A stretch of 64,000 nt of DNA, from NCBI GenBank assembly GCA_016180135.1, contig JACPBV010000004.1:26868-90867 (forward strand), in the 5' to 3' direction. Shown here one piece after another: positions 7,762 to 63,214 of the stretch. Source of the DNA: Candidatus Woesearchaeota archaeon (GTDB lineage: Archaea; Nanobdellota; Nanobdellia; Woesearchaeales; JACPBV01). Both the position numbers and the translations under genes were made by a program. The number at the start of each line of letters is the position of its first letter. The stretch's first letter is position 1. The notes beneath the pieces are model-generated. The model was given only the letters and a program-made list of their open reading frames with translations. It had not been told where the DNA came from and did not search any database.

Positions 7762-7845
7762 CTCCCGAAGTGCCGGGGCAATTTATAAACCTTTGTTTAA
7801 GCCAATATTCTGCAGGATATGCTCTCAGCTTTGGTAAGAAAACTC

Positions 7846-7905
7846 CTATGAATCACTTTTCCGCAGGAGCGGCTCTGCCGCCTAAGGTCAAAACTCAATT
7901 GACAT
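7846..7905. mobile_element. solo 5-prime-arm fragment of the family-B hairpin element
   Basis: tatgaat...ccgcaggagcggctctgccgcctaaggtcaaaactcaattgac matches the B 5-prime arm (ccggcaagagcggctctgccatcctaaggtcaaaactcaact). No matching 3-prime arm follows. Confidence 0.5.
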
Positions 7906-15657: not shown

Positions 15658-15690
15658 GATTTAGGGGCGGTTTAAAAGCTTTATCCTCTG

Positions 15691-15864
15691 GTATGTATTA
15701 AGCTCCGGCAAGAGCGGCTCTGCCATCCTAAGGTCAAAACTCAACTATCAAACTAAATCGCGCTCGTCGTGGGGGGATGCCCCCTCGGGGACACAGAGCC
15801 CTTGCCAAATCAATTGGGAGTTTTGAAGAGGGCAGAGCCGCTCCAAGGGGAGCTTAATACATAC
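15691..15864. mobile_element. family-B long-hairpin MITE-like element, copy B1 (174 nt)
   Basis: The 16-bp terminal inverted repeat is gtatgtattaagctcc / ggagcttaatacatac. Inner perfect stems are gagcggctctgcc/ggcagagccgctc (13 bp) and tcaaaactc/gagttttga (9 bp). The GC-rich core is ggggggatgccccctcggggacacagagcc. The flanking 8-mers match only imperfectly (atcctctg vs cttctgca). Confidence 0.7.
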
Positions 15865-15937
15865 CTTCTGCAGGCCTCCCCGAATTAAGTTCAGATATAC
15901 AATAAACCCGCCTCAAATCTCTATCTCACCCAAACGC

Positions 15938-19318: not shown

Positions 19319-20235
19319 GCCTTCTTCCCCCGCAGTGCAAGCGTAAGCCCTGCATCGATGCTGATGGTCGGCTCCCACCTCAATTCTTTTTTTGCCTTTG
19401 CGATGTCTGCCCTGCAGTCCATAACTTCATTTTTTCTCCGCTCGCCGGAAAATGTCATCTTCACAGGTTTCCCATGCAGTTTTGCAAGCTTCTCAGCTAT
19501 CTCCCTGACGCTGTAGCTTTTTCCCGAACCGATATTGAACACTCCCTCCCCCGGAAACGCCATCGCCCGGAGGTATGCCTCAACCGCATCTTCAACAAAA
19601 GTGAAATCTCTTTTTGGCTCAGGGTCCCCAAGCTCAACAGCCGCCCCCCCTGTCCCTGCCTCCGCCCCCAGCTGGCTTATGATCTTTCCGATAAGAAAAT
19701 CTTTTCCCTGCCCCGGCCCGTAGATATTGAACATTCTCAGGATGATCGCTTTCATCCCAAAATCTTTTTGGTAGGCTTTGATGAATTCCTCTGCAAGGTA
19801 TTTGGAATGCGCATAGGGGTTAAACGGGTTTAAAGGGTGCTTCTCGTCAACAGGAAGGTATTGGGGCGCCCCATACAGGTAAGAGCTTGCGAAAATAAGC
19901 CTTGCGCCGGTGATCCTGCACAGCTCGCACACATTAAGTGTTCCGAAGCTGTTCACTTCAAAATATTCCCGTGGCTTTTCCCGGGAAGCTCCCACCGCAG
20001 CAAGCCCTGCCAGATGGAAAACATGGCTGATGCCGTTAGTGCTCTTTGTTCCGTTAACTCCCTTTGTTCCGCTGGCTTCTGCAGCAATCCCCTTCAGGTC
20101 TTCCCAACGTGCCACAGACTTTCCTTCTGTGTGGTCAAATTTCAGGACAGGTATCCCCTTGCGCTCCAAAGCCCGGACTAGCCATTTGCCTACAAACCCG
20201 CTGCTTCCCGTGACTAAAACTGATGCTTTTTTCAT
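19315..20235 (-). CDS. NAD-dependent nucleotide-sugar epimerase/dehydratase (SDR family)
   Basis: VLVTGSSGFVGKWL is the Rossmann GxxGxxG motif. YAHSKYLAE is the YxxxK motif. Confidence 0.85.
   Translation of the reverse strand: MKKASVLVTGSSGFVGKWLVRALERKGIPVLKFDHTEGKSVARWEDLKGIAAEASGTKGVNGTKSTNGISHVFHLAGLAAVGASREKPREYFEVNSFGTLNVCELCRITGARLIFASSYLYGAPQYLPVDEKHPLNPFNPYAHSKYLAEEFIKAYQKDFGMKAIILRMFNIYGPGQGKDFLIGKIISQLGAEAGTGGAAVELGDPEPKRDFTFVEDAVEAYLRAMAFPGEGVFNIGSGKSYSVREIAEKLAKLHGKPVKMTFSGERRKNEVMDCRADIAKAKKELRWEPTISIDAGLTLALRGKKA
20023..20066 (-). repeat. in-frame imperfect 18-nt tandem repeat inside the epimerase gene (GTKGVN/GTKSTN)
   Basis: ccgttagtgctctttgtt / ccgttaactccctttgtt / ccgctggc.... 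These encode ...SGTKGVNGTKSTNG..., an insertion not expected in the SDR fold. Confidence 0.5.
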
Positions 20236-20948
20236 GGCAGAAATCTTGAAGGGTTTTTGCTGAACTCTTCAACAGCGATCGCATAATCATCCGGCCTCCC
20301 GATATCCAGCCAGTATCCTTCGAACGGATAGGCTATCACTTTCTCCTTCCTGCTGATGAGGATTTTTATCAGGTCAGGAAAATCCAGCTTCCCCTGCTGT
20401 TCGACAGCTTCTCTGATGATTCCGATGACCTTAGGCTCCATCACATTGATGCCGATGCTGACGGTGTATTGGAGCGTCGGCTTTTCAGTGTAGCCTCTGA
20501 CCTCCTGCCCGTTTCCCACCTCGATGATCCCATAATCGATAGGAACTTTTCTTTGGTGGACAGCGATAGTCACTGCAGCCTTATGCTTCTTGTGATAGCT
20601 CATCAGGTCTTTATAGTTCAGGTCCGTCAGGATGTCCCCATTCATCACCAGGAACGCCTCAGTAAGCCCCTTTATCTGCCCCAATGGCCCCGATGTCCCT
20701 AAAGGCTTGTCTTCCTTTGAATATTTAATCGGCACCCCGTGCTTCTGCCCGTCGCCAAAATAAGCCATGAACAGCTCAGAGAGATAACCGACGGCAAGAG
20801 TGATATCGGTGAAGCCGTTTTTCTTCAGCTGCGCAATGACCACTTCGATGATTGCCCTGTCCCCGATGGGCATCAATGGCTTAGGGATGACAGTGGTATA
20901 AGGCTTCAGCCGAGTCCCTTTCCCGCCCGCTAAGATTGCCGCTTTCAT
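20232..20948 (-). CDS. sugar-1-phosphate nucleotidyltransferase
   Basis: MKAAILAGGKGTRLKPYTTVIPKPLMPIG is the canonical signature (RfbA/RfbF/GlmU-N type). Confidence 0.85.
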   Translation of the reverse strand: MKAAILAGGKGTRLKPYTTVIPKPLMPIGDRAIIEVVIAQLKKNGFTDITLAVGYLSELFMAYFGDGQKHGVPIKYSKEDKPLGTSGPLGQIKGLTEAFLVMNGDILTDLNYKDLMSYHKKHKAAVTIAVHQRKVPIDYGIIEVGNGQEVRGYTEKPTLQYTVSIGINVMEPKVIGIIREAVEQQGKLDFPDLIKILISRKEKVIAYPFEGYWLDIGRPDDYAIAVEEFSKNPSRFLP

Positions 20949-21003
20949 AAGGAAAACCTGAGATGGGAAAAACTGAGAGTGTATTTAAAGATTTGTGTGT
21001 TTG

Positions 21004-21177
21004 GTATGAATTAAGCTCCGGCAAGAGCAGCTCTGCCATCCTAAAGTCAAAACTCCATCCAAAAAGACAGCCAGCCCGTTGCGGGGGGTTGTCCCTTACG
21101 GGGACGCAGGGCCATCGCCAGACTTATCGGGAGTTTTGAAGATGGCAGAGCCGCTCCGAGGGGAGCTTAATTTATAC
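21004..21177. mobile_element. family-B long-hairpin MITE-like element, copy B2 (174 nt)
   Basis: The inverted repeat is gtatgaattaagctcc / ggagcttaatttatac. The same 13-bp and 9-bp inner stems are present. The core is gcggggggttgtcccttacggggacgcagggcc. The flanking 8-mers tgtgtttg / ggtgtttg match 7 of 8. Confidence 0.75.
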
Positions 21178-21234
21178 GGTGTTTGAAGTGTTGAGAGCAG
21201 AACTTACGATATGGGCCTTTAGTTTACCTTAGAA

Positions 21235-22224
21235 CTATTCAAACCCCTTCCCGCCCTTCTGAAAAAAGTCCCAATACCACTGCACGGTCTTCTTCACGCC
21301 TTCCTTCCACCCGACAGCAGGCCTGTAGCCAAGAAGCTTCCTGGCCTTAGAAATGTCAGGGCATCTTCTCGAAACGCTTCCTGAAGGCGCTTTTTCAGAT
21401 GAATATCTCCCTTTAAACCCGACAACTGAGCCGATAAACCTCACAAGTTCATCGACGGTAATCTCCTCTTCAGCCCCGATATGGAATATCTCCCCGTCTC
21501 CCTTGCTGCTCTCCATCGCCAGGACAGTTCCCTGCACCGCATCATCCACATAGCAGAAGCTTCTCGTCTGCTCTCCGCCGATGATCGAAAAAGGATTTTC
21601 CTTCTCATAAAACCTTTTCACCACCTGGGGGATCACATGCTTGAACCCCATCCTTTCGCCGTAGACATTGTGGTATCTGGCCACAACAGGAATAAACCCA
21701 TACGTTTTTGCATAGGCAAACAATCCTGACTCTCCGAGCATCTTTGTGGCAGCATAGGTAAACCTTGGATGCCTGATGTCAGCGATGCACAGCGGCACTT
21801 CCTCATCCGTCGGCACTTTATAGCCAAACTTCTCGACGCTGCCGGCATAGCATTCGCTTGTTGACGAAAAAATCACTTTCCTGCATTGAGCAGTTTTCAG
21901 CCATTCCAGCAGGTTTACCATCAGCAGGGTATTGATCCTGATGATCTCAGCAGGCATCTTCTCCGTATAGCCGACGCCGACCACTGCAGCAAGCATATAT
22001 ACGCAGTCATAATGTTCGCCCAGCTTGGAAAATGCTTTTGCGTCGGTGCAGTCTGCCTTGACAATCTTCACCCCTCCCTTCTCCAGCGCCTTCAGCTCAT
22101 CATCCATCTTCCCCCTGAAGAAATTGTCAATGATCGTGACTGCATACCCTTTCTGCCCAGAAAGATGCTTCGCAAGGCGGTGGCCGATAAAACCAGCTCC
22201 GCCGATGATCAGTGCTTTTTTCAT
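21235..22224 (-). CDS. NAD-dependent nucleotide-sugar epimerase/dehydratase (SDR family)
   Basis: ALIIGGAGFIGHRLAKHL and YAATKMLGE (YxxxK) are present. A 4-nt overlap links it to the upstream dehydrogenase gene. Confidence 0.85.
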   Translation of the reverse strand: MKKALIIGGAGFIGHRLAKHLSGQKGYAVTIIDNFFRGKMDDELKALEKGGVKIVKADCTDAKAFSKLGEHYDCVYMLAAVVGVGYTEKMPAEIIRINTLLMVNLLEWLKTAQCRKVIFSSTSECYAGSVEKFGYKVPTDEEVPLCIADIRHPRFTYAATKMLGESGLFAYAKTYGFIPVVARYHNVYGERMGFKHVIPQVVKRFYEKENPFSIIGGEQTRSFCYVDDAVQGTVLAMESSKGDGEIFHIGAEEEITVDELVRFIGSVVGFKGRYSSEKAPSGSVSRRCPDISKARKLLGYRPAVGWKEGVKKTVQWYWDFFQKGGKGFE

Positions 22225-27688: not shown

Positions 27689-27987
27689 GTATGTATTAAG
27701 CTCCGGCAAGAGCGGCTCTGCCATCCTAATGTCAAAAACTGTTGTTTTTGAGCATGCTCAGAAATCGTAACTATTATAATAAGATATGACGATTTCTGAC
27801 AGGTCAAAACTCAACTGTCTAACTGAATCACGCTCGTAGTGGGGGGATGCCCCCTCGGGGACACAGAGCCCCTGCCAAATCAGTCAAGAGTTTTGAAAAC
27901 CCTAAGAAGCGAAGTTTCGTGGGTGCCAATAATGCGCAAGCATTATTAAGCATGGCAGAGGCGCTCCAAGGGGAGCTTAATACATAC
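27689..27987. mobile_element. family-B element, copy B3 (299 nt), carrying two nested insertions
   Basis: Same 16-bp inverted repeat and core as B1. Perfect 8-bp flanking duplication gaaaaatc (27681-27688 and 27988-27995). Relative to B1 there are extra segments of about 70 nt in the 5-prime arm and about 55 nt in the 3-prime arm. Confidence 0.8.
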
Positions 27988-59500: not shown

Positions 59501-62465
59501 AACACTCCCTGATTTTAATCAGGAAATTAACCTCCCCTCTACTGATGATCCTCAGTATACTCCTCCCGGGGATAATCCTCCATCAGAATTCCCATCTCCT
59601 CCAGTCAGTCCTCTTCCTCAGCTTCCCCTTATCCCCCTTTTCCCGCCATCATCTCCACCCATTGTTCCTCAGCTCCCGCTTATTCCTATCGCGCCTCTTT
59701 TCCCCTTCCTTCCGGAATTGCCTCCTGTCATTCAGCTTCCCCCGATTTATATCTTCCCGCCTGAAATCATTGTTCCTCAGCTTCCCCCTCAGCTGCCTTT
59801 GATTCCATTCCTTCCACAGCCGGCCCCGGAACTTATTCCTCAGCCGCCTTTGACACCTCCAGATCTGATTCCCCTTATGCCGCCGGAATTCCCTGCCCCG
59901 CCGGAACAGCCTGCTCCGGAATTAGTTCCGCCTCAGGAACCCATCATAAGTCCGGAATCTCCCGTCAGTCCGGTAGCCCCAATAACTCCAGAAGCACCTG
60001 TAACTCCGGAATCTCCGGAAACTCCAGAGCAATATGCTGAACGATTGAAAGATTTGGAAGCAGGCGCAAGAAGCATATCTGAAAACACATTCCCCTGCAG
60101 GTTCGCAAATATCACCAGCATTAATTCTTCAATTGCGCTTAAGAAAGGAAAAGTTACCAGGGAATACATCCCTAAAGGGTATGATCTTATTTTAGAGCCC
60201 TTCTTTGTTTCCTGCAGCGGCCAGTCCCTCCAGCTGACATTGAGCATTCCGGAAAACTACACTGATGTCCGGCTGTTTAAATGCGCCGAGGGAAAATGTG
60301 AGCCAAGGGCCCTTACCACGACCCAGGACCTGAGATGCCTCCCGAACGGCTCAAATGAGATCAGGCGCGTCAATGATTATCTTGAGCCAGAGTTCATCAA
60401 TGTCCAGACAAAAGAAGTTAAGGCAAATATCACCCAGCTCTCAACTATTCTGGCTTCAGGAAATAGGTCAGTCCAGTTTAAGGGCGGCGCTATAGAGAAC
60501 ATCACTGCCCAGCTGGTTAAGTCCCTTAACCCCGTGGAAGAGCCAAAGAACAAGTTTCTGAAGATTGTTGGCATCCCCCTTATCATCAAAGTGGGCGATG
60601 AGGGCAGCGTTGGGGACAGCCAGGGGGATAATCAAGAGGATAATCAAGAGGATAATCAAGAGGATAACCTTAGGGATAGCTATGAGGATATCAATGAGGA
60701 TAGCCATGAGGATAGCAATGGGAATAGCCGGGGGGACAGCAATGAAGTGAAGATCACACTCCCTTTCTCAAAAACCGATATTGGATATGTTGACGAAAAA
60801 AGCCTGTCGCTTTACGGGAAAGTCCCTGAAGGATGGTCATGGATTCCAAGCGCTATATCCTTGGACCATAGCTCTGTGTCAGCAGTTATCTCAAACATGA
60901 GCGCTTATCTTGATGGCAGCAGCACCGCTACCTTTGCTGTTATGGGAACAATCTGCCAGAACTGCACGAACACCGTGCTTGAGAGAGTTTACAACGGAAC
61001 CTCAAGGAAAGCATTGCTTTTGGTCCACGGCTTTGCAAGCTCCCCCGAAACATTCTCTGAGATCCTCGGAGATATCAGGCAGACAAAGCAGGAATTCCAG
61101 GTATGGACATTTGCTTACAGCTCCAGCCTGCCCCTGCAGCAGATTACCGATGAGCTGATAAGCCAGCTTCAGCGCAGTTCTTTTGAGTTCGACATCCTTT
61201 ACATCGGTGCCCACAGCCTCGGAGGCATTGTTGTCCAAAAAGCCCTTGACGATGCCTCGTCAAGAAACAAGGAAGTATTCACCTACTCCTTCCTGCCGAA
61301 AGTGAAAAAAGTCATTATCGCAGGAGCCCCTAATGAAGGCTCAATACTCTTAAGGGCCTATGAATCAATCTACAATTTCCTGATTAACCATGCAAGCAGG
61401 CTCAACAATCTTTTCAACCCAAGCCCCGACTTTGTTGAGATCCTCAGGAAAGGCCTGCTTGTCCCCCGCCTTGAGGGAGTTGAATATTATGTTATCGCAG
61501 GAACAAACCCTGATGAGTTCCCCGGATTCTTGAACCTCATCAGGGTCAATGACACCAACGACGGCCTTGTCACAGCAAAAAGCGCGCAGCATATCGGCGA
61601 TGCTGTCCTTGATGACCGCTGCGCTAATTTCTGGGACATCAATGTTTCCCACACGAAGCTTATCGATGATGACGTGTCAAGGAAGCTGATTGAGCGCATC
61701 GTCGCAAAAGAGATATTTCAGGAAGGCGATGACCTTGCTCTCGGCCATACGAAATATTTTGAAGTCAATGTCCCCTTGTGCAGGCCTGATGAAAAGTATA
61801 TCCTCATCGGAAAGCCGGTTCCTGCTGCGGCGATAGAAGACCCTACAGGATGCCTCTGCGGGAACGGTGTCTGCGGCATCGGTGAGACAGAGCTGAACTG
61901 CCCGTCAGACTGCTTTGTAAGTCTATCCCCTCAAAGATTCTTAACCGTCGGATGGCCGCTGTTCCTGCTGCTGCTTCTGTTGATGGGGTCAGGTGCAGTA
62001 TATCTTCAGCGGAGAAAGATTCATTACTGCGCTGAGCTTTCCTATTATCAATTCCTCCGGCAGGATTGGGCAGCGGTAAGGGGAATGCATGTGAAGAAAG
62101 CGGTCCAGGCATACCGCCGCCTGTTGCTCATCTATAGGGCGCTTCTCGGGCATGCCGGAAAGTTCCACCAGCTTGTCCTGTATTGGAAGGTAAAAAAAGT
62201 CTACACTGCCCTCATGGGATTGAGCATTGAGGAGCGGAAGCTTCTGGCCTTTGCCGATAAGGTCGAGGCAGCAGTCAGGCGCCGCCATCCTTCAGCCCAA
62301 AAACTTTATCGTTCATTGGAACAGCAATACGAGAGTCTCCTGCAGGAAAGGATTGCAGAGGAGAACAAAAAGCAGGGCCTGTTTGCCAGGCTGGCTATGA
62401 AACGAAGGGATAAAAAAATCTACGGAAGAGTCCTGGGGATTTACAGGCAGTTGAAAGGGAAGTAG
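47499..62465 (+). CDS. giant (4,988 aa) doubly anchored, sequon-rich multidomain surface protein
   Basis: A single uninterrupted ORF. There are hydrophobic anchors near both ends. In between are Cys-rich modules, parallel beta-helix (PbH1-like) repeats, a LamG-like lectin domain, Ig/FN3-like repeats, a Pro-rich linker and an alpha/beta-hydrolase domain (GAHSLGG). Confidence 0.9.
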   Translation: MKQSSKVKEISAGIRELRLSGKNADNARKSYARLLEALLQEKEKLQSHLSKGILSEQNYDQILQENLDGKTRMQWIAYCENILGSADSKKQQYRRWVGVLEDDIGRIKRSFRKGSISQEAYHHLLNQKIEGKTREGWIVSAKMALYGLEEGESLAGAQGILSRSASSVIRASKSLLEEKKELLVNTAPIILMLLLLSLSAFFISPAHTGFAVISIENGFEDSLNLSLNGSSSFLWAPASHGMITNIAVSGRLSKGAGAKIYLEKAGRLYLLLDTEAGLKTETVLQEIPGIAAGISSLPQQKIPLTGEIENLSVALIGSGPVQSANDIFKFGLKQRAGLDNSSSVPDENFCALWKVNNVSAECYGNADCCSFAGLEASGSWNDTFYLYSGRFSAKKDNLIEPILISYDVNLSIPKSDIRISSAVAEAHFADELERFSLACMETCSGLEFNESRYSLVVSLAIGSLILDSISYKMAESYNVSENSPLLQKNISNVSLYQNENITLSLNDFFADADSDALVYYAYPAENISFSFYQGNITVIPDKDFLGKASTFFTASDGFFNATSGIIDIEVAEKPLLPAQVSVTQTPIKPKVRVNEPVKWVTRVNSTRKVINLTMSLAHGAENISVRELTQGSIDTSRVIDTSKVIDTSKVIDTSRVIDTAGFMNLKSVFVSEQGQTKNLSLYNAEKYLARLESREEMLIETKRGKIKNDPTEIEALKSLNTQLRDVENEKNRITGFVVAQRGQKGIITRFFEWLIQSDLVGFAILNAPLAPITTPSTNLIPTPTTNHATNSFPTPSTNLIPTPTTNLEEPGENAHPPVLTIAEGIKEAEITYFTEAPVAEEFNLSESGKRIIISSDIHYENITAFTYLPGEYASSGIHLYWMKNGSREEVNFTAFDENNNGRIDYIEWIIPSLSNQTYDLSLTIITLKSYPIIGRNWTTEFNVSGTANLTITAVNSTSFGQVYVDNFSSEDDLYLRELKCGNLTVWNNGTNYSSGNVFFVLSNGTEAAWSETFGNSLPVTSLKVVDFSCSSSAYHIVKVETHGDHVQEFTFGNITKYAYNHAGGTACGSDGLGSTCQGGGNASLDTCIDTDSSNTLDGSDFCHGANQCLDSHIGASCNYATGPTSGLCAYNGATSATCSNLVISGEYGTGITGGSSVNFHSGNENSSCSPASEMMVCNISTGYNPQGGDLCLDSSCTDPASGIVSLNCIDQSCSTSDVSDAAVFGDCNATGGGWACDSSLGSSGFAQDGICSVTSGFNTYGCAASGYICNATSGPFAGTIFKNGCGVGMECSDNDPCDSSLTDGNFNKAAGTCSGTDCVGVAVASIYAFNHSKTSPTSLYLVNGSVNSSVINGTNITHNQTLNFTHPTFGLRLQIIANFSSWDVDISNLTIDANNFSTAVNWTFVDQRAVPKNHTLYVPNTLQLGVYACGTANSTGEVFPKCPNRTVWTDSELGAGSVVVRNGLVAYELSNRYVVSNLSGSGIGQGVAECGALNRENVTYNLLQSVTDTDTCFTISANNVTLDCNNFSITYATAANGNGITVSNVNRTTIRNCTFIKTSGQGSSYAVQLSGANNASISNSSFTAASLISYPIYLTSSSRTNLIQNNNITASGGSPGIYIDSSSGQNIILNNNITTVAASAPAVYITGSSNNTLDGNNITTAGKASFGIQLDASSFNTTIIFNNITTEGNSSHAVYILAASNFTKVLKNVIITKGWTSSGIMISDASYNMAENNSLDILNSTNAAFYINQSSLANSFSKNNVTFSRGDAIHIIYDPKPTSDGGPVPRFNNFSNNTFSNISGFDLMLTPMISAPGVSQINLTTLIDQPIKRYNFTNYGGLFAIRSSEFGEIAFFTVINGSGTNFSNDIIIKNNSITVNASAGNGIFNSSANLTFFNLGDRGFANPAILYNGGTCDLTTSPLCLNFTGLTAATVILNVTHFSNYSIGGQVDLSTPTVSVISPTHRNYTLRQIDFNISLNEAGSACKMALDSEGNITMSAVNSSYYNFTNVSVSTAFHNVTFFCNDTSNNFGIVTGYFRVSINATCAFGLNCSQHFGLDACVDTTADNTPDSCQNETRDCASYIGKSCDLSNNSQGICTNNSRCEGNLLVAGEYGLGIVGGSLGDFHSGNETAGCSGGTEAMICNASINSSYSPKAWSYCADNSCIEPATTSAVSFDCKDNECSIADISAAAFQPSCVSGWACDSPVNGSGWSQDGICDSSGTPQCIIDGRGNVCNSSSGTLVNSSCGSSCAANDPCDATLADGNFNRSYGACQGSSCTQITANGKPSVSVPAFNTSSPSSTDVIRAQVNYSDPDANQGDVFIFWFSNNTNIYNRTFSRVSNGSVLNATLGPLNFTRGRVINVTVNATDGQLYSLTNASIPLTIGNAPPALASPALNISTPSEIDSIKVNTTYSDQDNDTGSVNITWYVNQVPKFNQSFQGVANGTVLTSNFSLGNFNETDKINVSIIANDSSSNGSLVWSRSAIITPGPNVSSCGNLSLNQTTFTLQQDVSAAQTCFSLSGEDIVFDCAGKSINYSSGYWGSAFNNSLGFSNITIKNCVINQQNQTAGSSPALDIKNAENMTIQNVSITTFGSSSYAISIDTGQNITISGSTLKTNGSNAFAIYLTGGRGNITIINNTIETNGSAADGIDSTGVDSQNIFGNTITVRGADSRAIDPGVSDDNSIKANIINASGADAYGISVGGASHIDNTVGNNIIDLYGTGSIGIFLGVDGFASHANNTITARGSSSIGIDISNTRYTEIYNNTINISGSSGRGIRSDTTPDNMNIRENLITITGSGGMGAYLKQATSFNFTNNTILVNAGTSTGIYTETSSALNISLNTINATGSSTRAVVIWRTERSVFKYNNITYAGLDAFFIDNGNGNSYYNNFTGNSIGGSGGHDFFFDDPNILGTRFIDQTVREINLTTGGMEMYIENTTFGEIYFFKNTTGDSVDLNSNLIIGNNTVSVNSASIPGFNTSANISLYALGSRGFSVPVILRDSDTVCNRTSAPQCTNFTGLDANVVRFNVTSWSNFSIADSGVSTPSIYFPANGKNHSSVPYLNFSSFDSNGNPITYNVYINGTLNATTTTNITSWNASDGYYNMTVSASAGGLGSANATYTFFRKDGVQPSFADNQTNVTSAKINDIIQFNLTVMDNASGLSYYLFSWNGTGAWDNLTNASLTGAGRKLVLNKTLAVSSGNTIGYRWFVNDSAGNMNETETRIFSIGNTAPNLTAPQLNDSSLYASEDIQASATYEDADGSAGTVVFQWFRNNSLIFNQSFHGLANGTTPYSNLSRSNYSAGDLINVSVFANDSSQASAVVNMNINALTVQETEVPQIRFIGPTPPNGTKTPINFTVVNISLEESNLNILKLDWNGSNYTLFNNTLVLALNFDNRSSLGENNSLVKDISRNYYPGILSGPVFGSASGIYGGAYTFDGLDDNITFPHTGHFDINNGSFTMESWIKMNPNATGPRHIMGKRSDDGGNWTRLYSLDGDVRFEFTGGVAVQAPGPFNDTLWHYIIATRLANGTSILYVDANLTYAGTNPGNVSNQANFTIGRWSYENSFNGTIDEVRFWNRSFTEKEVNITYHSNLKKLNQSGYGLIYNATGLLDNRTYNYSAYAQDDAGNENRTETRSISIDATPPSFSLNQTNASQAAKNGNISFNITLADSFTGLSFYLFSWNGTGAWENLTNGSLSAASSQSLSLNKSTNLTNGSVVAYQWFANDSAGNKNSSGEGSFIIINAAPSTPVVAAPVSGSNLTNVAINFSSSDTDGHQITFRIFINNTLNITTTANITAWNASDGFYNLTITATDGSTSSQNSTVIFFRLDTTAPGFSGNQTNSSAARQDGNITFNITMTDLGAGLSSFIFSWNGTGAWENLTNGSLNGASSQFLNINKSPAVAANKVVGYRWYANDSANNFNSTETGTFSILPTCGDSLCDSSEATSCAADCDWCGDSVCSSGETCSSCSSDCGSCPGGEYHSPAPSPPSSAPGSGYSAPPNVQPPSVTLPDFNQEINLPSTDDPQYTPPGDNPPSEFPSPPVSPLPQLPLIPLFPPSSPPIVPQLPLIPIAPLFPFLPELPPVIQLPPIYIFPPEIIVPQLPPQLPLIPFLPQPAPELIPQPPLTPPDLIPLMPPEFPAPPEQPAPELVPPQEPIISPESPVSPVAPITPEAPVTPESPETPEQYAERLKDLEAGARSISENTFPCRFANITSINSSIALKKGKVTREYIPKGYDLILEPFFVSCSGQSLQLTLSIPENYTDVRLFKCAEGKCEPRALTTTQDLRCLPNGSNEIRRVNDYLEPEFINVQTKEVKANITQLSTILASGNRSVQFKGGAIENITAQLVKSLNPVEEPKNKFLKIVGIPLIIKVGDEGSVGDSQGDNQEDNQEDNQEDNLRDSYEDINEDSHEDSNGNSRGDSNEVKITLPFSKTDIGYVDEKSLSLYGKVPEGWSWIPSAISLDHSSVSAVISNMSAYLDGSSTATFAVMGTICQNCTNTVLERVYNGTSRKALLLVHGFASSPETFSEILGDIRQTKQEFQVWTFAYSSSLPLQQITDELISQLQRSSFEFDILYIGAHSLGGIVVQKALDDASSRNKEVFTYSFLPKVKKVIIAGAPNEGSILLRAYESIYNFLINHASRLNNLFNPSPDFVEILRKGLLVPRLEGVEYYVIAGTNPDEFPGFLNLIRVNDTNDGLVTAKSAQHIGDAVLDDRCANFWDINVSHTKLIDDDVSRKLIERIVAKEIFQEGDDLALGHTKYFEVNVPLCRPDEKYILIGKPVPAAAIEDPTGCLCGNGVCGIGETELNCPSDCFVSLSPQRFLTVGWPLFLLLLLLMGSGAVYLQRRKIHYCAELSYYQFLRQDWAAVRGMHVKKAVQAYRRLLLIYRALLGHAGKFHQLVLYWKVKKVYTALMGLSIEERKLLAFADKVEAAVRRRHPSAQKLYRSLEQQYESLLQERIAEENKKQGLFARLAMKRRDKKIYGRVLGIYRQLKGK
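48058..48117 (+). other. N-terminal transmembrane anchor of the giant protein
   Basis: The hydrophobic run PIILMLLLLSLSAFFISPA follows about 185 aa of charged, Lys/Glu-rich sequence. Confidence 0.7.
49395..49475 (+). repeat. in-frame 18-nt tandem repeat (IDTS[RK]V x4.5) in the giant ORF
   Basis: attgatacctcaagagtc / attgatacatccaaagtg / attgatacatccaaagtg / attgatacctcaagagtc / attgatactgct.... Confidence 0.9.
49817..49917 (+). repeat. in-frame 60-nt-period repeat (perfect 41-nt core x2; TPSTNLIPTPTTN)
   Basis: cactccctccactaatctcatccccacccccacaactaatc occurs at 49817-49857 and 49877-49917. Confidence 0.85.
50685..51465 (+). other. Cys-rich module 1 of the giant protein
   Basis: GGTACGSDGLGSTCQGG...CIDTDSSNTLDGSDFCHGANQCLDSHIGASC...GTDCVG. 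It is homologous to module 2 at 53615-54335. Confidence 0.7.
52032..52820 (+). other. parallel beta-helix (PbH1-like) repeat region 1
   Basis: A period of about 22-23 aa, e.g. NNNITASGGSPGIYIDSSSGQNIILNNNITTVAASAPAVYITGSSNNTLDGNNITTAGKASFGIQLD. Confidence 0.7.
53615..54335 (+). other. Cys-rich module 2 of the giant protein
   Basis: ATCAFGLNCSQHFGLDACVDTTADNTPDSCQNETRDCASYIGKSC...GSSCTQ is collinear with module 1. Confidence 0.7.
55035..56180 (+). other. parallel beta-helix (PbH1-like) repeat region 2
   Basis: ITIKNCVINQ...NVSITTFGSSSYAISIDTGQNITISGSTLKTNGSNAFAIYLTGGRGNITIINNTIETNGSAADGID... has periodic N-x-I/T turns. Confidence 0.7.
57639..58235 (+). other. LamG / concanavalin-A-like lectin domain (Laminin_G_3-type)
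   Basis: LALNFDN...GGAYTFDGLDDNITFPH...FTMESWIKMN...WHYIIATR...LYVDANL...FNGTIDEVRFWNRSFTEKEV is the canonical pattern. Confidence 0.8.
60612..60743 (+). repeat. in-frame 12-nt tandem repeat (11 units, 3 near-perfect) encoding an acidic [DE]-[DS]-x-[QNE] tract
   Basis: ggggataatcaa gaggataatcaa gaggataatcaa gaggataacctt ... translates to GDNQEDNQEDNQEDNLRDSYEDINEDSHEDSNGNSRGDSN. Confidence 0.85.
61011..61672 (+). other. alpha/beta-hydrolase (lipase/esterase, PGAP1-like) domain
   Basis: LLLVHGFASSPETF (oxyanion region), the nucleophile elbow GAHSLGG (61206-61226), and later NDGLV and SH as candidate Asp/His. Confidence 0.7.
61941..62007 (+). other. C-terminal transmembrane anchor of the giant protein
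   Basis: WPLFLLLLLLMGSGAVYL is followed by RRK and about 150 aa of basic helical tail. Confidence 0.7.
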
Positions 62466-62935: not shown

Positions 62936-63214
62936 GGCGGGAAGGCTAGGCCGGGATGCTAGTGCCACCCTGTCACCTGAAACGCACTTCAGCAGGGGCC
63001 GAAGCTTTGCAAGCGGCATTTTGCTTTGCTGGTGGTCTTTGCCCGTACGTCGAAGCTCTGTCCTTTGGGATTGCCTGTTCAGTGAACCTGGTCAGGCCCG
63101 GAAGGGAGCAGCCATAAGCTGGATGGATGATGCTCAAGGGGTAGCGGAGTGGAGGAAAGGCAGAGGCAGCCATCATCAGGGTAGATTGTCCATTGCGGGG
63201 CATGCTTTCCCGCT
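62936..63214 (+). ncRNA. ffs: signal recognition particle RNA (archaeal-type 7S / SRP RNA)
   Basis: The helix-8 motif ggtcaggcccggaagggagcagccataag lies at 63089-63118. The terminal helix gcgggaagg (62937-62945) pairs with ctttcccgc (63205-63213), including one G-U. A length of about 280 nt fits the archaeal long form. The ends are approximate. Confidence 0.8.

Follow-up and report, generated by a model that had tools for sequence, protein, structure and literature searches.

We studied a 174-nucleotide (nt) repeat element, B2 (positions 21004-21177), in a 64,000-nt stretch of DNA on contig 44 of the genome of a groundwater archaeon, Candidatus Woesearchaeota (G000; 1.51 Mb, 88% complete). 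This stretch is referred to as the window, and coordinates follow its numbering unless a contig (C) is named; contigs belong to G000 unless another genome is given. The window is archaeal and carries an archaeal signal recognition particle (SRP) RNA at 62939-63211. B2 lies between two co-directional glycosylation genes on the minus strand, one for an NAD-dependent epimerase/dehydratase (21235-22224) and one for a sugar nucleotidyltransferase (20232-20948; identified by Pfam PF00483). On the same strand, a TATA-like box, CTTTAAATA (20982-20990), ends 33 nt before the ATG at 20948 and adjoins an A-rich pentamer, CAAAT (20991-20995), that resembles a B recognition element (BRE). Both motifs lie outside the element, directly to the left of its flanking duplication, and from their sequence form the presumed promoter of the nucleotidyltransferase gene, firing away from B2. 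Two further copies in the window, B1 (15691-15864) and B3 (27689-27987), were confirmed together with B2 by repeat finding and alignment. B2 contains no credible open reading frame (ORF), only short, non-conserved ones. Of the Rfam 15 covariance models, only SRP RNA reached its gathering score in the window, and a search of five B copies at E values up to 5 returned nothing credible.

The original prediction described the interval 20996-21185, which is the element plus an 8-mer on either side, as a copy of B1 with conserved arms and a diverged centre. We found that B2 forms one long interrupted hairpin on either strand. RNA folding gave -86.0 kcal/mol for the plus strand (z -5.8 relative to shuffles) and -89.2 kcal/mol for the minus strand (z -8.4), and folding with DNA parameters gave -42.1 kcal/mol (z -5.9). 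Read along the plus strand, as are all parts of the element below, the left terminal inverted repeat is also the 5' half of the outer stem S1 (GTATGAATTAAGCTCC, 21004-21019). It pairs with the right terminal inverted repeat and 3' half of S1 (GGAGCTTAATTTATAC, 21162-21177) through 15 Watson-Crick pairs and one G-T. The second stem, S2, pairs GAGCAGCTCTGCCATC (21025-21040) with GATGGCAGAGCCGCTC (21141-21156); in copies from genomes G001, G007 and G009 its sequence differs and yet the pairing is kept. The arms had been called almost identical to those of B1, and we measured 92.9% identity. The single wobble described in the outer stem (G21008 opposite T21173) and the A-C described in the 13-bp stem (A21029 opposite C21152, in S2) are both present, and both are private to B2. 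The arms are conserved as proposed, but they include the terminal inverted repeats of a transposon. Such symmetry is what a DDE transposon should show, and it does not count as evidence for an RNA.

Inward of S2, the left arm alone carries a 6-nt bulge, CTAAAG (21041-21046), opposite a single A at 21140. The consensus of the family is CTAAGG, and CCTNAGG is kept in nearly all families that carry the core described below. By eye, the bulge lacks the tandem G-A on both strands of a kink-turn and does not fit a loop-E/sarcin-ricin motif. The third stem, S3, pairs TCAAAACTC (21047-21055) with GAGTTTTGA (21131-21139), so that the 3' halves of S3 and S2 together span 21131-21156. Enclosed by S3 are a left spacer (CATCCAAAAAGACAGCCA, 21056-21073), a GC core (21074-21112) and a right spacer (CATCGCCAGACTTATCGG, 21113-21130). 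Within the GC core, the closing stem S4 (GCCC-GUU-GCG at 21074-21083 with CGC-A-GGGC at 21105-21112) encloses a G-run (21084-21088), then UUGU, then the apical hairpin S5 (CCCU-UAC-GGGG, 21093-21103). The apical hairpin said to be retained, GUCCC-UUAC-GGGG followed by ACGCAGGGCC, is present as described.

B2 is a member of a repeat family. BLAST returned 87 matches to the element in 40 loci of G000, corresponding to ~21 complete copies plus fragments. The complete copies measure 149-330 nt, are spread over 14 contigs, and every one begins with GTATGnATTAAGCTCC and ends with the complement of GTATGnATTAAGCTCC. The 8-mers that flank B2, TGTGTTTG on the left (20996-21003) and GGTGTTTG on the right (21178-21185), match at seven of eight positions, as had been reported. 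By our own arithmetic, which assumes uniform base composition, a match at seven or more positions arises by chance in ~4e-4 of single 8-mer pairs. Among the 21 complete copies in G000, the flanks agree at 8/8 positions in 11, at 7/8 in six (B2 included) and at 6/8 in one. The three remaining copies have duplications in another register: 12 nt at C10:5113-5286 (TATTCCAGCTGA/TATTCCAGCGGA), 9 nt at C39:6118-6292 (TCGTAAGGA) and 6 nt at B1 (15683-15872; CCTCTG/CTTCTG). The flank similarity could have dissolved into a low-complexity coincidence once many copies were examined. It did not, as 17 of the 21 copies score 7/8 or 8/8. Given this family-wide pattern and the low chance expectation per pair, the 8-mers are therefore a target-site duplication, and the proposed length of 8 bp stands.

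Two further observations concern the ends of these elements. Position 6 of the terminal repeat (21009 with 21172 in B2) varies among copies and always together with its partner, as T-A, A-T or G-C, a covariation that is unexpected if the ends need only to bind a transposase. At 7838-7905, the window also carries a truncated relative of the left arm (...CCGCAGGAGCGGCTCTGCCGCCTAAGGTCAAAACTCAATTGACATT) whose outer arm differs (CTATGAATCAC) and in which no right half can be recognised; it is probably a broken copy of a related family.

The ends connect the family to insertion sequences (IS) of the IS66 type. According to ISfinder, members of the IS66 family have an 8-bp target duplication and ends starting with GTA, and the B family shows both. 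In addition, its terminal consensus, GTATGTATTAAGCT (A at position 6 in B2), shares 11-13 of 14 nt with the ends of PF03050-encoding elements in G007, G142 and G186, and the first 14 nt of the left repeat of B2 are such an IS66-type end. These elements (G007:C113, G142:C23 and G186:C76) are ~1.57 kb long, encode a transposase of 439-454 amino acids (PF03050; E values of 2e-42 and 8e-37), and end in GTACTTATTAAGCT, GTACGTATTAAGCT and GTATCTATTAAGCT, respectively. At a cut-off of at least 150 amino acids, they have a single long ORF on the transposase strand without accessory tnpA/tnpB, and in this layout they would resemble the single-ORF (ISBst12-like) group of IS66. PF03050 transposase genes were found in G002 and G007, both of the same family as the host. 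With the G007 transposase as a protein query, we detected relatives in 12 of 301 genomes of the order. Because the ends match those of IS66-type elements and the duplication is 8 bp long, we classify B2 as an IS66-type miniature inverted-repeat transposable element (MITE). We consider it highly probable that B2 is a fixed, slightly decayed copy of such a non-autonomous DDE transposon and that it belongs to a second subfamily, defined below. An IS66-type MITE is a known kind of element; the variant trait here is that the folded interior, and not the ends, is the most widely conserved part. Our literature search turned up no publication about Woesearchaeota MITEs or about archaeal MITEs derived from IS66.

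The history that we propose for B2 is as follows. An IS66-type transposase, supplied in trans, would have recognised the GTATGnATTAAGCT ends. An 8-bp staggered cut of the target, followed by repair, would have left TGTGTTTG on both sides, one base of which would have changed since. The target would have been the upstream edge of the BRE/TATA promoter of the sugar nucleotidyltransferase gene, the usual landing place of the B family. The present centre would have been reached through substitutions compensated within stems and through turnover of an unpaired spacer, with the S3-S4-S5 fold held in common with B1-type copies. We infer the mobility of B2 only from the differing flanks of the copies and their clean duplications. 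Four or five changes in the arms and bulge are private to B2, and one base of its duplication has changed; as these changes are accompanied by the lack of an empty site noted below, we regard it as a fixed and not very recent insertion.

Several results weigh against this account. Queries with DDE_Tnp_IS66 (PF03050) and with the Woesearchaeal transposase found no match in G000 (88% complete) or in its congener G001, a groundwater metagenome-assembled genome (MAG; assembly 62% complete), although repeats often fail to assemble. The mobilising enzyme is therefore deduced from other genera. In the IS copies that we examined, similarity to the MITE is confined to the terminal ~14 nt, and those with both flanks readable (in G142 and G105) show no clean duplication. 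We found no empty-site allele in four groundwater metagenomes, in all of which contigs enter the element from both flanks. No orthologous locus was detected in five relatives, where only the MITE part matches and the flanking glycosylation genes have no DNA-level counterpart.

Neither did the search for an autonomous copy in G000 yield one: unpaired ends are all short, truncated remnants beside ordinary genes. A covariance model of the whole, core-bearing element (R1) had no match in G002, which has seven IS66-type transposase genes, and we therefore conclude that the IS copies in that genome are without the core. By eye, no core was seen in the left leader of the G007 element. As a separate observation, metagenome depth over the element (20992-21196, runs X1-X4) is 50-100 times that of the flanks when summed over all organisms, and assemblies break inside it. 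Repeats of this superfamily are thus abundant in the community and probably help to explain why MAGs are fragmented and IS copies missing.

We then compared the centre of B2 with that of other copies. The central ~75 nt had been described as largely different from B1. This was somewhat overstated: the left 18-nt spacer is unalignable, but the ~40-nt GC core and the right spacer (~68% identical) are clearly homologous to those of B1, and the centre as a whole is 64.5% identical. The B2 centre is 90.7% identical to that of C15:4774-4947 and 84% to that of C9:1398-1624, both without the central insert, and the same variant recurs with the insert in C23:37718-37922. These copies, like those of G004 (a different genus), share the left spacer CATCCAAAAAGACAGCCA, and we refer to the group as the beta subfamily. 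Identity of the B2 centre is 78-86% to the G004 copies and 61-66% to alpha (B1-type) copies, reaching 71% for C39, a mosaic alpha copy with a beta-type apical loop. The B2 arms are 92-97% identical to those of other copies. Over the whole element, identity is 85-88% to the G004 copies and 89-94% to the G001 copy (G001:C42). The genes flanking the G004 copies have no DNA-level similarity to those flanking B2.

Three beta copies of G004 (C36:68-233, C78:6962-7130 and C9:27509-27684 of that genome) match B2 as closely as the SRP RNA gene of G000 matches that of G004 (84%). The similarity between B2 and the G004 copies suggests either that the element is under strong constraint or that it has been passed between Woesearchaeota that occur together.

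The closing stem reads GCUC-GUC-GUG / CAC-A-GAGC in alpha copies and GCCC-GUU-GCG / CGC-A-GGGC in beta copies. S4 has thus undergone two exchanges of U-A for C-G, each compensated, and the apical loop differs as well. In G003 and G007, there are copies whose left spacer is beta-like and whose closing stem is of the alpha type, and alpha and beta therefore look like diverged lineages of one ancestor and not like a cassette swap. The earlier view that the B2 centre is not the product of simple decay is borne out, since the variant recurs in other copies and in another genus and the fold is kept by two compensatory double changes. The notion of a replaced interior applies to one 18-nt spacer; the rest belongs mostly to a homologous core that has diverged as a separate lineage. 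A more apt description of the interior is a second lineage of one shared fold, in a family that is itself a mosaic.

If B2 were merely a decayed copy of B1 with an 8-mer match due to chance, this would account for its private G-T in S1, its A-C in S2, CTAAAG in place of CTAAGG, and an imperfect duplication. It would leave unexplained why the variant centre occurs in three other G000 copies and in copies of G001 and G004, why the stem differences are compensated, and why duplications recur across the family at the frequency given above. These results refute simple decay, to which we assign next to no probability.

The proposal that the element is modular is true of the family, which has three optional inserts and three or four apical types, but B2 itself has no optional module. 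Insert M1 (~70 nt) follows the CTAA of the bulge, M2 (53 nt) precedes the 3' half of S2, and M3 (~31 nt) sits at the tip, is doubled in C2:15538-15829, and is shared with the family-A repeats of the window. Apart from M3 there are three plain types of apical loop, and loop types b and c as well as M2 and M3 are found in both alpha and beta copies, so that segments must have passed between copies or been inserted more than once at a single site. Within the genus of G000, alpha and beta copies have one set of arms in common, whereas the arms of the G004 beta copies are of the G004 type. Judged by sequence comparison, the B family evolves as a mosaic. The M1 insert of B3 (27725-27810, ~70 nt) is bracketed by a repeated GTCAAAA and has inverted repeats of its own (TCAGAAATCG/CGATTTCTGA and TGAGCATGCTCA), and it resembles a smaller element nested within the larger one.

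The interior extends well beyond the B family. R1 had matches in 12 of the 14 genomes of the host's family, most in G004 (77), G000 (69), G011 (67), G001 (46) and G013 (35), and many of these cover only the inner part of the model. The inner-part matches are other families, composed of 131-135-nt elements that end in GTATTTGTTTAGCA... or GTATGTGCATAGCA..., with flanking duplications of 8/8 in 24 and 7/8 in 6 of 37 copies. The inner domain shared by all of them (~105 nt) comprises the CTAAGG bulge opposite a single A, S3, two unpaired spacers, S4 with a GUY bulge and an A bulge, and the S5 tip with its succession of G-run, C-run and G-run. A core-only covariance model (R2) matched in 52 of 301 sampled genomes and in 42 of 217 genera of the order, under several types of end. 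R2 scores in distant families are ~100 bits, about as high as in G000.

One of these shorter families was observed in G000 itself. It is a second MITE family of 131-132 nt (GTATTTGTTTAGCATCC...GATGCTAAACAAATAC) with 8-bp duplications and the same core as B, at C27:10417-10547, C10:65019-65150, C23:3662-3793, C42:22853-22983, C12:115-275 and C3 (~18900). Its core shows compensated differences in S3 (GTCGAAACGC/GCGTTTCGA) and in S4 (GTCC/GGAC).

To assess the pairing of the core, we aligned 54 distinct cores, drawn from 11 genomes, with MAFFT. Standard pairs make up 98.4% of the 1183 cells, compared with 35-47% when partners are slid by 1-3 columns. Counted without correction for phylogeny, 12 of the 22 core pairs change on both sides (160 cells), a value reached in 0 of 500 shuffles. 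S4 contributes most, with six of its seven pairs covarying across the 54 cores. In S3, four of nine pairs covary across families and all cells pair (100%); its variants AAAACUC, GAAACGC, AAAAUUC, GAAAUCC, GAAAUUC and AAAGUUC each occur with the exact complement. In S5, pair 60-70 (alignment A4) changes from C-G to U-A. The suggested folding check on the centre came out in favour of a structure shared by B1 and B2, which emerges from this comparison and not from single-sequence folds: the minimum-energy folds of the two centres differ. At the tip, RNAalifold on 14 copies picked the pairing of the 5' G-run with the C-run, whereas covariation favours that of the C-run with the 3' G-run; the two pairings are mutually exclusive and both are possible. 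Part of the covariation in S1, in S2 and in the short families reflects no more than the requirement that terminal repeats match. Extended ends may also include S3, while S4 and S5 are truly internal.

For the role of the fold, one explanation is that the ~105-nt core is a cis-acting or small structured RNA placed on MITE ends and transcribed by read-through from a neighbouring gene. Such an RNA could be a 3'-end stabiliser, a terminator, an insulator between transcription units or a protein-binding RNA; the B2 centre would be one variant of this RNA, its function preserved by compensatory changes. The strong covariation in S3, S4 and S5 is in line with this, as are the sequence conservation of the asymmetric bulge and stem bulges and the persistence of the core across the order while the ends vary. 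So is location: in ~12 of 21 copies, the right-hand gene reads into the element between co-directional genes, and B2 sits 57 nt behind the stop of the epimerase gene. In the C-run of S5, U opposite G is common and A opposite C rare (32 versus 2). However, outside the apical pair the covarying stems contain only three G-U cells in ~1100, and no lineage has a fixed wobble, a near-absence of G-U pairs that is atypical for RNA families. In a model-based alignment, G-T and A-C mismatches in S2-S4 are about equally frequent (25 and 16), with no strand preference. Moreover, copies of the short families face either way with respect to the promoters beside them, no internal promoter is evident, and no Rfam family matches. 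We therefore regard a read-through RNA of this kind as possible but unlikely. The sequencing runs that hold the B2 region are DNA runs only.

The near-absence of G-U pairs and the lack of strand bias point to a hairpin at the DNA level, or to a templated process, more than to RNA. The reading that we prefer, although at no better than even odds, is that the fold acts as a DNA hairpin, cruciform or single-stranded fold that aids the bringing together or recognition of ends during mobilisation. Any role in RNA appears clearly less likely than that, and the lack of any role less likely again. Two points count against a role in DNA: the argument for it relies mainly on few G-U pairs and no strand bias, and the asymmetric bulge (CTAAGG versus a single A) and the S4 bulges would also suit an RNA or a protein-binding site.

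The same scarcity of wobbles is what one would see if the fold had no function and the arms were kept complementary by templated mutation and gene conversion between copies. The templated mutation would be intra-strand template switching or mismatch correction of hairpin DNA, and the B2 centre would be one lineage so produced. Such a process accounts for near-perfect Watson-Crick pairing without wobble intermediates or strand bias, for the joint changes at position 6 of the terminal repeat within one genome, and for the pervasive shuffling of segments between copies. It does not readily account for the unpaired parts, which have not been made symmetrical: the 6-nt versus 1-nt bulge, a 5x5 internal loop, the GUY and A bulges of S4, and the ~18-nt spacers. 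At least 40 families of the order show sequence conservation in some of these parts, and core scores in distant families that equal those within G000 are hard to reconcile with neutrality. We consider a functionless fold quite improbable.

By contrast, a ~105-nt fold kept across the order under several types of end has, by this argument, been selected in its own right. We offer more tentatively, as an idea that is still rather doubtful, that the S3-S4-S5 core is a portable structured nucleic-acid module, with a CCUNAGG bulge and a tip closed by a covarying stem, present in ~1/6 of Woesearchaeales genomes and not a passive filler between IS ends. If so, it might direct insertion towards the upstream edge of BRE/TATA promoters or, as a DNA hairpin, assist synapsis, or it might act in read-through transcripts as an insulator or stabiliser.

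The position of the copies relative to promoters is strongly biased. In 14 of 20 B copies in G000, the left end lies 11-17 nt from the end of a TATA-like box; the same holds for the right end in one of 20 copies and for 6.4% of intergenic positions taken at random. In at least 10 copies, the left-hand gene is directed away from the element. The spacing in the left flank was also observed to be fixed (e.g., 15667-15690 and 20982-21003), with the box followed by ~5 nt (NTTTN) and then by the 8-bp target. The 14:1 bias between left and right is not explained by a symmetric transpososome, and the orientation bias is not seen in the short families or in the copies of six relatives, where the box is on either side; both points weigh against the account of B2 given above. 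The position may reflect either the choice of target or the survival of harmless insertions.

For the genome, B2 is an ordinary, fixed selfish insertion between two sugar-pathway genes, beside a promoter. MITEs normally share their ends and vary inside. Here it is the inside that is conserved, with one fold kept through compensatory changes under several types of end in 42 of 217 sampled genera of an order of DPANN archaea, and B copies lie at the upstream edge of archaeal core promoters with nearly single-base regularity. The family thus offers a tractable case for asking what use a folded interior is to a DDE-type MITE and how an archaeal transposon reads promoter architecture. As a practical caution, even strong covariation is not enough on its own, in these genomes, to call an RNA gene. 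The window also has two tandem arrays (1028-1183 and 60605-60676), GAGTGTAAAGGA-like and GAGGATAATCAA-like with a period of 12 nt, which probably code for repetitive parts of large surface proteins.

We compared the B family to known systems. With IS66 elements (ISBst12-like), it has in common the 8-bp duplication, the 5'-GTA ends, and the terminal match of 11-13 of 14 nt to IS of the same order. Like IS66-derived MITEs, its members are short, non-coding and multi-copy. It differs in that the cognate transposase was not found in G000 or G001 and in that the interior is a structured core that the IS copies examined do not have. Pneumococcal BOX elements, arranged as boxA-boxB(n)-boxC, are likewise modular, with optional and repeatable modules to which M1, M2 and M3 would be the equivalents. 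Terminal repeats and a target duplication like those of the B family are not clearly present in BOX elements, and B2 itself carries no optional module. REP/REPIN sequences, which are mobilised by RAYT (Y1/HUH), are hairpin repeats whose structure matters at the level of single-stranded DNA; they have neither target duplications nor DDE-type terminal repeats. The B family resembles them in that its stems stay complementary and differs from them in its 8-bp duplications.

There is also a likeness in form to long-foldback, MITE-like repeats of bacteria, namely Correia/NEMIS of Neisseria and the enterobacterial ERIC/IRU, which are often co-transcribed with their neighbours. Correia elements have a TA target duplication and reported effects on adjacent transcripts through hairpin processing and promoter activity. 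The B family, too, consists of intergenic imperfect palindromes of 100-200 nt that fold on either strand and form subfamilies of internal variants. It is set apart from these repeats by its ends, the length of its duplication and its archaeal host, as well as by a core that is found under several types of end across the order and by insertion at the upstream edge of BRE/TATA.

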